Assembly (NCBI GenBank): GCA_965649765.1
Contig: OZ287749.1
Span: forward strand, 102,486,001 to 102,550,000
From: Bispira polyomma
Lineage: Eukaryota
Reading direction: 5' to 3'
Length of the DNA stretch: 64,000 nt
In this document: positions 49,115-63,106 of the stretch, piece by piece
How the letters are laid out: each line of letters starts with the position of its first letter
How positions within the stretch are numbered: the stretch's first letter is position 1
The notes under the pieces: generated by a model
Told to the model about the DNA's origin: nothing
The model's database searches: none
What the model saw: only the letters and a program-made list of their open reading frames with translations
Translations under genes and position numbers: made by a program

Positions 49115-49550
49115 TTAATCCTCATCACTGGAATCTTCAGTATCTGTATCATCATCCCATTCGTTGAAATAGTCTAACACATCCTGCCTGTAGCTCTGTT
49201 CTGGTATCTTAGACATCTGTAGAGCTTTGATTAACCTCTCAACAGTAGCTTGTACCTTTTTCTTCCGTCTCCAAGCATCTAACATGCCAATAACTTGATC
49301 CTTTACAGAACTTGGGTTATCACTTTGGAAATTTTTTATTTGTCTTAATTTGAAGCCCAGATTAATTCCAAACACATGCACACTGTCGATACAGTGTACA
49401 ATAGTTCCAAATAACCTTTCCTTCAGGCGAGAAGTCTTCTGTTCAGGGGTCAGCTCATCTAAAAGATGATCTGTAAACAACCTTATTAATGCAATGTCAG
49501 ACAAATCAGTTTTGTATTTATGATTATATTCAATATCAGTTCAATAAAAG
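49115..49550 (-). pseudogene. Terminal exon: Death domain plus acidic tail (TGA at 49541-49543 near its start)
   Basis: FGINLGFKLRQIKNFQSDNPSSVKDQVIGMLDAWRRKKKVQATVERLIKAL fits the death-domain pattern LG....I..I...NP......ML..W......AT...L..AL. Acceptor TCTTAG, phase 2. Confidence 0.85.
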
Positions 49551-50011
49551 CTAAGATATACATGTAATATTACTGTAGGGGTGATAAATGTATACAGGGG
49601 CGTAGCTACTGTTAACACCAGTCGACCCAGGCATATCAATTTAATGACGACAAAAAAAAATTTAAAAAAAAAATTTTTGAAAAAAAAAAAGAGGCTATAT
49701 ATAGATTTAGCCATGTTACAAGAGTGAATAATCCTTATATAAGCTTATCACACATATACATATAATTACCTATTTATGATACATTCAACCAATAAAATAT
49801 TTAAACTTCAAGTGTTAACAAAAATTCTAAACATTAGAAGCTATAAAATATTTATTTGAGCTATTTTTCTAGGTTGTACACTGGGGTGTAAATAAAAAGG
49901 AGACTTAGTGGTTCATAGAATTAGCTTCAAATACAGCTGCAATAATGTCTAAATTGTATATAACTAATCTACATTTATAGCATCATGTGCTTAATATTTA
50001 AATATTATGAC

Positions 50012-50156
50012 CTGTATCTTTGCTTTGAATAACATTGTTTATGTACATTGAGTACTATTGTGATGTCAATGACGAGAGAAGATTTGTCTGATGACAGATC
50101 AACCCTATATCGTCACTCATCGAGTGGAGGGGTGAAATACACAGAAATATAGCTAT
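50012..50156 (-). pseudogene. Small linker exon (YSYISVYFTPPLDE*RYRVDLSS...), phases 1 and 2
   Basis: It bridges the phase-1 donor at 50376 to the phase-2 acceptor at 49551. Contains TGA at 50113-50115. Confidence 0.55.
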
Positions 50157-59897: not shown

Positions 59898-60217
59898 CTT
59901 TTTCTGGAATTTTGTACCATTTTTGACAGGCATACATCTGTGTAGTAACTATTGATTGCGTCATATCCTTTCCTATATATCTCTCTAGGGGGTTGACTGA
60001 GTGAATTAAAATCTCCTTTTGTGCAAGTACAAAAATGTTGGGTTTCAAACAACTTTTTCCCAAACATGGTAATGAGATTGTCATCCATGTGAAGTGTTTC
60101 CAAATTATAGGGGAAAATATAGTTAGGTGGATCAATGACTCTAATTTGATTGTATGACAGATATAGTTTTCTCAGGTGTTGGTGCTGGCTGAAGTCGCAC
60201 ACTTCACTGATTACATT
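59898..60217 (-). pseudogene. Remainder of the LRR exon after the premature TAA: last LRRs plus the PP.EI...G...I..Y pre-ROC motif
   Basis: Same frame as the 962-aa ORF: NVISEVCDFSQHQHLRKLYLSYNQI...NSLSQPPREIYRKGYDAINSYY...RKR. Donor AG|GTATGA is phase 2 and matches the ROC exon. Confidence 0.88.
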
Positions 60218-63106
60218 TTATGACATCTCTAATTTTTGTATATTACATGGCAAATTTGCTGGATCAATGCTGGTGATATGATTGTCTGACAGATCTAGTT
60301 CACCAAGGTGTCGGTGCTGACTAAAGTCGCACACTTGACTGATTTTATTGTGTGACATATTTACCACTTGTACATTAAAGGGTAGATTCTCTGGATCAAT
60401 GCTGGTGATTTGATTGTCTGACAGATCTAGTTCCCTCAGGTGTTGATGCTGACTAAAGTCGCACACTTGACCGATTTCATTGAGTAGCATCTTTACCACT
60501 TGTACATTAAATGGTAGATTCTCTGGATCAATCCTGATGATTTGATTGTGTGACAGATCCAGTTCCCTCATGTGTTGGTGCTGACTAAAGTCGCACACTT
60601 GACTGATTTTATTGTTTGATATATCTACCACTTGTACATTAAAGGGTAGATTTTCGGGATCAATACCAGTGATTTGATTGTCTGACAGATTTAGTTCTCT
60701 CAAGTGTTGGTGCTGACTAAAGTCGCACACTTGACTGATTTCATTTCCTGACATCTTTACCACTTGTACATTAAAGGGTAGATTTTCTGGATCAATGCTG
60801 GTGATTTGATTGTCTGACAGATCTAGTTCCCTCAGGTGTTGATGCTGACTAAAGTCGCACACTTGACTGATTTCATTTCCTGACATCTCTACCACTTGTA
60901 TATTACATGGTAGATTCTCTGGATCAATCCTGGCGATATCATTGTGTGACAGATCCAGTTCCCTTAGGTGTCGGTGCTGACTGAAGTCGCACACTTGACT
61001 GATGCTATTCCATGACATCTCCAATTTTTGTATATTACATGGTAAATTTTCTGGATCAATGCTTGTGTTTCGATTGTATGACAGATGTAGTTCCCTCAGG
61101 TGTTGGTGCTGACTAAAGTTGCACACTTGACTGATTACATTTCCTGACATCTCTACTTTTTGTATATTATATGGTAGATTTTCTGGATCAATGCTAGTGA
61201 TATGATTGTATGACAGATGTAGTTCCCTCAGGTGTTGGTGCTGACTAAAGTCGCACACTTGACTGATTTTATTTCCTGACATCTCTACTTTTTGTATATT
61301 ATATGGTAGATTTTCTGGATCAATGCTGGTGATTTGATTGTGTGACAGATCTAGTTCCCTCAGGTGTTGATGCTGACTAAAGTCGCACACTTGACTAATT
61401 TCATTCAGTAGCATCTTTACCACTTGTACATTAAAAGGTAGATTCTCTGGATCAATCCTGGTGATATGATTGTGTGACAGATCTAGTTCCCTCAGGTGTT
61501 GATGCTGACTAAAGTCGCACACTTGACTGATTTCATTGAGTAGCATCTTTACCACTTGTACATTAAAGGGTAGATTCTCTGGATCAATCCTGGTGATATG
61601 ATTGTATGACAGATGTAGTTCCCTCAGGTGTTGGTGCTGACTAAAGTCGCACACTTGACTGATTTTATTTCCTGACATCTCTACTTTTTGTATATTATAT
61701 GGTAGATTTTCTGGATCAATCCTGGTGATTTGATTGTGTGACAGATCCAGTTCCCTCAGGTATTGGTGCTGACTAAAGTCGCACACTTGACTGATTATAT
61801 TTCCTGACATCTCTACTTTTTGTATATTATATGGTAGATTTTCTGGATCAATGCTAGTGATATGATTGTATGACAGATCTAGTTCCCTCAGGTGTTGATG
61901 CTGACTAAAGTCGCACACTTGACTGATTTCATTGAGTAGCATCTTTACCACTTGTACATTAAAGGGTAGATTCTCTGGATCAATCCTGGTGATTTGATTG
62001 TGTGACAGATCTAGTTCCCTCAGGTGTTGGTGCTGACTAAAGTCGCACACTTGACTGATTTTATTTCCTGACATCTCTACTTTTTGTATATTATATGGTA
62101 GATTTTCTGGATCAATGCTAGTGATATGATTGTATGACAGATCTAGTTCCCTCAGGTGTTGATGCTGACTAAAGTCGCACACTTGACTGATTTCATTGAG
62201 TAGCATCTTTACCACTTGTACATTAAAGGGTAGATTCTCTGGATCAATCCTGGTGATATGATTGTATGACAGATGTAGTTCCCTCAGGTGTTGGTGCTGA
62301 CTAAAGTCGCACACTTGACTGATTTTATTTCCTGACATCTCTACTTTTTGTATATTATATGGTAGATTTTCTGGATCAATCCTGGTGATTTGATTGTGTG
62401 ACAGATCCAGTTCCCTCAGGTATTGGTGCTGACTAAAGTCGCACACTTGACTGATTATATTTCCTGACATCTCTACTTTTTGTATATTATATGGTAGATT
62501 TTCTGGATCAATGCTAGTGATATGATTGTATGACAGATCTAGTTCCCTCAGGTGTTGATGCTGACTAAAGTCGCACACTTGACTAATTTCATTGAGTAGC
62601 ATCTTTACCACTTGTACATTAAAAGGTAGATTCTCTGGATCAATCCTGGTGATTTGATTGTGTGACAGATCTAGTTCCCTCAGGTGTTGGTGCTGACTAA
62701 AGTCGCACACTTGACTGATTATATTTTCCGACATCTTTACCACTTGTATATTACATGGCAGATTCTCTGGGTTAATGCTTGTGATTTGATTGTGTGACAG
62801 ATTCAGTTCTCTCAGTGGTTCATGCTGGCTAAAATTACAAACCTGACTGAGTTTATTATTTAACAAATCTAAGACTTCCATAGTGCGAGGGATGTTTTCA
62901 GGATTTATCTCCATTATTCTATTATCTTTCAGTTTGAGATATTTTAAGTCTTGAAATGCTGGTTCTTTCCCCAGGTTTGGAACACATTGTAGTACATTTC
63001 CTGATAAATCCACCTCTGTATAGCACACATCTCCACTTAGACTATTAAGTCTTTGCTCCAACTCATTGTCATTAAGGCCCTTCTTGCTCCAATTCATTGT
63101 CTCCAT
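60218..63106 (-). CDS. 962-aa intracellular LRR-only ORF: N-cap plus 20 tandem 44-aa double-LRR units (the last cut by TAA)
   Basis: Uninterrupted ORF with 132-bp periodicity over 60170-62809 and the LxxLxLxxNxI consensus. No signal peptide. Acceptor TTTCAG 10 nt before the ATG. Confidence 0.8.
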   Translation of the reverse strand: METMNWSKKGLNDNELEQRLNSLSGDVCYTEVDLSGNVLQCVPNLGKEPAFQDLKYLKLKDNRIMEINPENIPRTMEVLDLLNNKLSQVCNFSQHEPLRELNLSHNQITSINPENLPCNIQVVKMSENIISQVCDFSQHQHLRELDLSHNQITRIDPENLPFNVQVVKMLLNEISQVCDFSQHQHLRELDLSYNHITSIDPENLPYNIQKVEMSGNIISQVCDFSQHQYLRELDLSHNQITRIDPENLPYNIQKVEMSGNKISQVCDFSQHQHLRELHLSYNHITRIDPENLPFNVQVVKMLLNEISQVCDFSQHQHLRELDLSYNHITSIDPENLPYNIQKVEMSGNKISQVCDFSQHQHLRELDLSHNQITRIDPENLPFNVQVVKMLLNEISQVCDFSQHQHLRELDLSYNHITSIDPENLPYNIQKVEMSGNIISQVCDFSQHQYLRELDLSHNQITRIDPENLPYNIQKVEMSGNKISQVCDFSQHQHLRELHLSYNHITRIDPENLPFNVQVVKMLLNEISQVCDFSQHQHLRELDLSHNHITRIDPENLPFNVQVVKMLLNEISQVCDFSQHQHLRELDLSHNQITSIDPENLPYNIQKVEMSGNKISQVCDFSQHQHLRELHLSYNHITSIDPENLPYNIQKVEMSGNVISQVCNFSQHQHLRELHLSYNRNTSIDPENLPCNIQKLEMSWNSISQVCDFSQHRHLRELDLSHNDIARIDPENLPCNIQVVEMSGNEISQVCDFSQHQHLRELDLSDNQITSIDPENLPFNVQVVKMSGNEISQVCDFSQHQHLRELNLSDNQITGIDPENLPFNVQVVDISNNKISQVCDFSQHQHMRELDLSHNQIIRIDPENLPFNVQVVKMLLNEIGQVCDFSQHQHLRELDLSDNQITSIDPENLPFNVQVVNMSHNKISQVCDFSQHRHLGELDLSDNHITSIDPANLPCNIQKLEMS

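Follow-up and report, generated by a model that had tools for sequence, protein, structure and literature searches.

A run of leucine-rich repeats (LRRs) that stays open above a broken signalling tail raises the question of whether the gene now makes a shortened decoy, donates repeat cassettes to working relatives or is simply dead. Here we examine such a locus on the minus strand of a 64,000-nt window of the Bispira polyomma genome (OZ287749.1, 102,486,001–102,550,000), the stretch on which all positions below are counted. Its sequence shows a ROCO gene copy with eight exons and the layout LRR-ROC-COR-FN3-Death, one of a large family in this genome. We consider it a recently killed copy in a birth-and-death family of a known kind, with a probability of roughly 0.84; this was one of three options left by an earlier first-pass annotation, and it fits every test made.

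Lesions in an eight-exon gene copy

Because the lesion status of any triplet depends on the exon model, we built the model from paralogues. Eight coding exons, all on the minus strand, were obtained from alignment with the nearest paralogues, in which the GT-AG ends and phases are conserved, and the splice sites and phases of the locus proved as readable as had been claimed. Pfam matches to LRR, Roc, COR-A and Death each fall in the expected frame. Coding exon 1 (59898–63106, 3209 bp, phase-2 donor) holds an N-cap, an array of twenty double-LRR units of 44 amino acids (132 bp) each at 62815–60176, and a C-cap. Exon 2 (54124–55769), open over about 511–512 codons, encodes ROC and directly then COR in the same frame. 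Its Roc match (E = 7.4e-6) reaches 26.6 bits, slightly below the cut-off of 27 (paralogues score 28.7 and 35.5), and its COR-A match (E = 4.2e-9) reaches 36.9 bits against a cut-off of 35.3.

The exons behind ROC-COR are short. Exon 3 (53656–53853) is open and encodes the first portion of an FN3-like domain, with fn3 cluster matches of 0.91–0.92 in Atlas and E = 0.2 in Pfam; exon 4 (53358–53444), also open, presumably encodes the remainder, a label based on a sequence motif. Exon 5 (52191–52370) carries a stop, described below. Exon 6 (51549–51666) is open and, at 118 bp, has the same length in paralogues, and exon 7 (50377–51011) is an open Pro/Ser/acidic linker with 108-bp repeats and a phase-1 donor at 50377. 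Finally, exon 8 (49115–49470) encodes the Death domain (Pfam E = 3.3e-8) and is open up to its natural TAA.

Four lesions interrupt this model, all on the minus strand where oriented. As reported in the first-pass annotation, the LRR sequence has no lesion for 2886 bp: the ATG at 63106–63104 opens 962 codons, which end at a TAA at codon 963 (60218–60220), 320 nt above the exon-1 donor. This stop lies in the final repeat unit, the most diverged of the array, which differs from every other unit at 17–31 bases, and it removes 106 codons, the C-cap among them. At its column the sister units had been said to carry GGA, GAA, TGG or CAC; all four do occur, but the list was incomplete, since the 19 sister units have GGA nine times, CTC five times and GAA, CTG, TGG, AAC and CAC once each. 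The second lesion is the TAA in COR (54233–54235), where seven of seven aligned paralogues have CAA or GAA, and the fourth is the TAG in exon 5 (52330–52332), which is CAG in all seven; both had been read correctly as in-frame stops. Between them lies a deletion that had been overlooked. Comparison with the paralogues places its junction at about 54124 (54120–54128) and indicates that it took the ~95 last coding bases of exon 2 together with the exon's donor and the greater part of intron 2; 271 bp remain from the deletion to exon 3, against 966–3206 bp for the same intron in seven paralogues.

The remaining damage had been misplaced. All five stop triplets first listed are present at their positions, but two of them are intronic. 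The TGA at 50113–50115 lies within intron 7, because the phase-1 donor of exon 7 joins the Death exon directly, and the TGA at 49541–49543, formerly assigned to the Death exon, is 71 nt upstream of the acceptor of that exon, which begins at 49470; the TTG-AAC context of this triplet recurs in the intron of paralogues. Similarly, the frameshifts described around 51.7–51.9 kb fall in intron 5, and the adjoining exon 6 is open. Three further readings were considered and rejected: an exon at ~50110, a Death exon that begins further upstream, and a coding segment at 51.7–51.9 kb.

With its introns kept, intact paralogues in the genome and frame-disrupting lesions, the locus has the hallmarks of a duplicated, unprocessed pseudogene. 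A full ROC-COR protein is not encoded, as the stop at codon 963 precedes ROC and the COR exon is shortened. On this evidence the locus is a ROCO-derived pseudogene and not a working ROCO member, and it likely makes no useful protein. Transcripts with a stop upstream of exon junctions tend to be degraded; a spliced transcript of this locus would hold its stop upstream of several such junctions and would likely share that fate.

Chance, constraint and the probable time of death

Chance, together with the copying of repeats, would likely leave an open LRR stretch of this length. The first 962 codons make up 44% of the nonsense target, and the probability that all three stops fall past codon 962 is 0.18, or 0.097 when the deletion is added as a fourth lesion. 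Neutral divergence since death is estimated from sequence at about 1.2–1.4%; the lower value corresponds to T ≈ 0.012 substitutions per site, obtained by hand calculation from the three stops and a nonsense target of 256. With so little neutral change only ~1.4 stops are expected in 962 codons, so that finding none is unremarkable (the chance of zero stops at T = 0.012 is 0.26). Ongoing copying of units within the array would shrink the target further.

The family as a whole shows no sparing of LRR exons. We examined the stretches around 49 other loci, which with this one gave 50, and took a census of 37 of them, calling lesions with a simple frame-path script and setting exon ends by hand. 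The omitted loci are 8 in which the LRR exon was not found or was mostly missing from the stretch, 2 that lack ROC-COR, 2 open copies that have no introns and 1 whose exon end is unclear; the terminal deletion of the present locus was left out of the count. Both large exons are open in 19 of the 37 loci and both are broken in 12; the LRR exon alone is broken in 3 and the ROC-COR exon alone in 3. Across the 18 broken loci, LRR exons carry 28 lesions in 26.4 kb (1.06/kb) and ROC-COR exons 34 in 30.6 kb (1.11/kb; p = 0.90).

Additionally, substitution rates do not set the N-cap apart from the tail. A codon model was fitted to 923 tail codons of eight copies, on trees that were fixed from nucleotide fits and have weak internal support. 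The ratio of non-synonymous to synonymous substitution rates (dN/dS) of the tail is 0.345 on the terminal branch of the locus. Intact and internal branches give 0.41, and the pseudogenes G and H 0.57. For the terminal branch of the locus, neutrality (a value of 1.0) is rejected at p = 4e-10, and values of 0.25 and 0.5 can likewise be rejected (p = 0.049 and p = 0.024, respectively); past purifying selection on the tail was strong. For the N-cap, which shares 83–88% identity with paralogues, dN/dS is 0.338 on the branch of the locus against an intact background of 0.39. The comparison of N-cap and ROC-COR proposed earlier, run here with the tail, thus gave 0.338 versus 0.345. The picture of an intact sensor over a dead tail, from which the question arose, does not stand: introns hold the frameshifts and two of the five stops, the two dN/dS values match, and LRR exons are not spared in the 18 broken loci.

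Since the tail is open over ROC-COR and its dN/dS is near that of the intact background, its decay is not deep and death appears to have been recent. Three motifs in the ROC exon, GLTEAGKTS, DQGG and THTD, are candidates for what we take to be G boxes, and a G5-like motif that reads V-S-(S/C/N) in 14 other copies is V-L-S here. This S179L change is one of 10 private changes in ROC-COR at columns invariant in those 14 copies, compared with 0–6 in five close paralogues (p = 0.018), an excess that would imply T ≈ 0.014. Set against a branch length of 0.144, these values of T suggest that the gene has been dead for roughly the last tenth of the branch. On this reading it would still have been a working sensor of full length over ~90% of the period after its split from the nearest paralogues, and would then have taken its first inactivating hit, whichever of the lesions that was.

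Alternative explanations

Copying inside the array bears on two of the alternatives. Bases 62683–62156 and 62023–61496 differ at 2 of 528 positions, marking a recent internal duplication or conversion with a period of 660 bp (61496–62683, minus strand) that spans four consecutive units. Furthermore, 19 of the 20 units of the locus form their own locus-specific clade. Homogenisation inside the array is real and is confined to the locus. Two differences are fewer than expected from death at T = 0.012 (P = 3e-4), so that copying likely went on after death, unless the assembly duplicated units.

Among the alternatives, an LRR-only decoy survives best, although we regard it as unlikely. Such a locus would be transcribed and end its message at an intronic poly(A) site, and its uncapped solenoid of 962 amino acids would bind ligand or partner without signalling. 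Several observations weigh against a copy that simply died, and most of them suit a decoy. Besides the 962 open codons themselves, the array seems to have turned over after the tail died. Its 466 non-synonymous framework sites show 2 changes confined to single units, against an expectation of ~5.6 at T = 0.012 by hand calculation, a shortfall that homogenisation confounds, and its singleton ratio of non-synonymous to synonymous changes (pN/pS), 0.67, is the lowest of seven arrays; these two values lean slightly towards a decoy but do not leave the range covered by intact and broken copies. The N-cap departs weakly from neutrality (p = 0.041), for the most part a trace of its time as a functional gene, and the C-cap behind the stop has a dN/dS of 1.2, as expected under a decoy, in 85 codons that give little power. 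The excess of relaxed changes in ROC-COR also disappears when eight-sequence columns are used (22 of 746 sites, compared with 27 of 796 in intact paralogue E). Lastly, the donor of the probable 5' exon and the acceptor of exon 1 are kept, so transcription is possible.

Other observations weigh against a decoy. The open stretch is within chance (P = 0.10–0.18), and LRR exons are not spared family-wide. Perfect internal repeats in the intact paralogues A and B are equally long, at 518 and 409 bp. LRR solenoids usually need caps for stable folding; the product would be without the C-cap that intact copies keep, and one framework change in the array is Ile to Asn. The first AATAAA in intron 1 (59706–59711, minus strand) lies 186 nt into the intron, but the motif is at chance level there, with 4 observed and 4.4 expected in 4127 nt, and five of seven paralogues also have one in the first kilobase; we rejected it as evidence for a decoy. 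A fuller version, in which a sensor turned decoy when its array was rewritten after the death of the tail, with the 962-residue solenoid made through intronic polyadenylation as one of several LRR-only products of the family, appears just as improbable, although the copies at C9:53.41, C5:4.58 and C1:75.22 also keep the LRR exon open while their tails are broken or deleted. If a decoy reading were true, it would show a way in which an invertebrate sensor becomes a regulator.

Other family members show related arrangements. In paralogue M (C1:75.21–75.22 Mb) the LRR exon is open for 761 codons, exons 2–6 are absent and exon 7 follows next in matching phase, with a stop at codon 251 and its donor lost; from its sequence, M would be a better candidate for an LRR-only gene than the present locus. 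At C9:53.41–53.44 Mb and C5:4.57–4.58 Mb, LRR exons are open (1332 and ~950 codons) over broken ROC-COR; the C9 copy, like M, would be a better LRR-only candidate than the present locus. The mirror case, a broken LRR exon with an open ROC-COR exon, is as common as this arrangement (3 versus 3).

Less probable still is that the lesions are haplotype-specific or assembly errors and that an intact allele exists. One assembly haplotype was seen, and a recent death means that fixation is not assured. We checked the stops in three runs from at most two samples, one of them perhaps the assembly's own; the runs were taken as DNA because introns and high-copy repeats are covered. In run contigs, the stop base at 52332 is present in three of three runs and that at 54235 in two of three, the alternative base at 54235 co-occurring with changes that match paralogue D. 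No variant row was found at 60218–60220 in the three runs, a weak kind of evidence, and the first stop rests on the assembly together with this absence. Four independent lesions make pure assembly error unlikely.

The weakest alternative, that units of the pseudogene are copied into functional paralogues by gene conversion, is very improbable and largely refuted for the germline assembly as sequenced: homogenisation within the locus, half of the original proposal, holds, but donation is unsupported because no paralogue unit is closer than 14 of 132 bases, the minimum over 136 units of seven paralogues. Three of these units, all from D, do have their nearest relative in the locus, and D7 adjoins the clade of the locus; these three nevertheless differ at 16–21 of 132 bases. 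The longest exact tracts shared with paralogues are 24–66 bp in the LRR exon, compared with 39–75 bp in ROC-COR, and when 901 bp of the array were searched against the whole genome at the DNA level, long matches outside the locus reached at most 82% identity (14 candidates scored). Recombination of LRRs between genes is described for Ectocarpus ROCOs (PMC3341825).

The family, related systems and surrounding sequence

The copy described here, probably a recent loss, is ordinary and in itself matters little; the main value lies in its family, since a single animal genome carries a large set of LRR-ROC-COR-FN3-Death genes of which about half are broken. Genome searches matched ROC-COR 109 times, the LRR start 199 times and the Death exon 42 times, figures that count matches and not copies. 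In paralogues A, C, D and E all eight exons are open with the same phases, an LRR exon 37 kb upstream being assumed to be part of A; B is open, but its exon-7 donor was not found, and F, G, H, M, N and O are broken. Across copies the LRR array is a single exon of about 270–3200 codons and evolves by copying within each locus. The largest single open LRR exons, at C14:17.90–17.91 Mb and C2:104.91–104.92 Mb, have ~3200 and 2609 codons, and array length varies more than 10-fold family-wide. A protein search at near length found 41 proteins with 31–66% identity; a weak search among 5243 candidates found no full-length relative of greater length. The best matches in a structure library, the ROC of LRRK2 and one 'Leucine-rich-repeat protein' (4wnr), are weak (E = 2e-4 to 3e-3).

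The architecture of the family, its expansion and its LRR variability suggest an immune role for the intact paralogues, in a pattern that matches candidate immune receptors and parallels the ROCOs of brown algae. With other ROCO proteins (LRRK2, MASL1/MFHAS1, DAPK1 and prokaryotic Roco), the human members of which we compare by their reported domain layouts, the locus shares N-terminal LRRs followed by ROC-COR. In contrast, the model has no kinase exon, FN3-like, linker and Death parts follow COR, the LRR array sits in one exon, and this copy is broken.

Parallels also come from expanded ROCO sets. The candidate immune receptors of Ectocarpus and other brown algae (PMC3341825, PMC11378527) are likewise expanded, with variable LRR number and high birth–death turnover. 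'At least a half' of the Ectocarpus ROCO loci are disrupted, compared with 18 of 37 here, and LRRs recombine between loci (PMC3341825). In those genes every LRR has a separate exon, and shuffling occurs both inside genes and from one gene to another; here a single exon holds the array, which is homogenised in the locus, and no sign of recent exchange was detected for this copy. Trichoplax has at least 17 ROCO genes, with LRR, TPR, CARD and death domains around ROC-COR (PMC11378527); this is another invertebrate set with death domains, and differs in that FN3 is not named in the part of the report available. Truncated decoy receptor isoforms and the cassette donors of lamprey VLRs (PMC3341825) are the models behind the decoy and donor alternatives; here we found no selective sparing and no shared tracts. 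The LRR-ROC-COR-FN3-Death layout was not seen in the portions of the ROCO literature searched, which is not proof of novelty.

Upstream of the ATG, a block at 63848–63874 (minus strand), conserved in paralogues C, D, G and H, is probably the end of a non-coding 5' exon, with a donor ACA/GTAAG near 63848 (cut after ACA); the motif is present within 1.5 kb upstream of the ATG in six of seven paralogues. The probable 5' intron contains a 412-bp insertion, to which no strand was assigned (63215–63626), with TGT...ACA ends and a 4-bp target duplication, which we take to be solo-LTR-like. It is lacking in paralogues C, G and H, and D has unrelated sequence at its place. In intron 1, a very high-copy repeat with 154-bp internal units (56714–57733) recurs in introns or flanks of paralogues B, D and G.

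Some family members depart further from the eight-exon plan. At C3:18.59 Mb and C3:27.45 Mb, LRR and ROC-COR share one uninterrupted frame of 931 and 998 codons, and these copies may have arisen by intron loss or as retrocopies. Paralogue N (C2:105.05 Mb) lacks the middle of the gene, so that its 246 LRR codons and its open Death exon lie within ~350 bp of each other, and the intact paralogue E (C2:103.018–103.020 Mb) has two copies of the Death exon 1.4 kb apart. At C2:105.47 Mb (L051, ~1891–2301, reversed), an open frame that by eye resembles histone H3 occupies the place of the LRR exon of a broken paralogue. Positions 1–49000 of the window hold no further family member or long coding frame and consist mainly of micro- and minisatellites, with an N run at 31133–31301. 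Upstream of the window lie a reverse-transcriptase element (L029:1216–3185; RVT_1, E = 2e-31) and another retroelement (L030:6286–9999), which has long frames that overlap and a match to RNase H.

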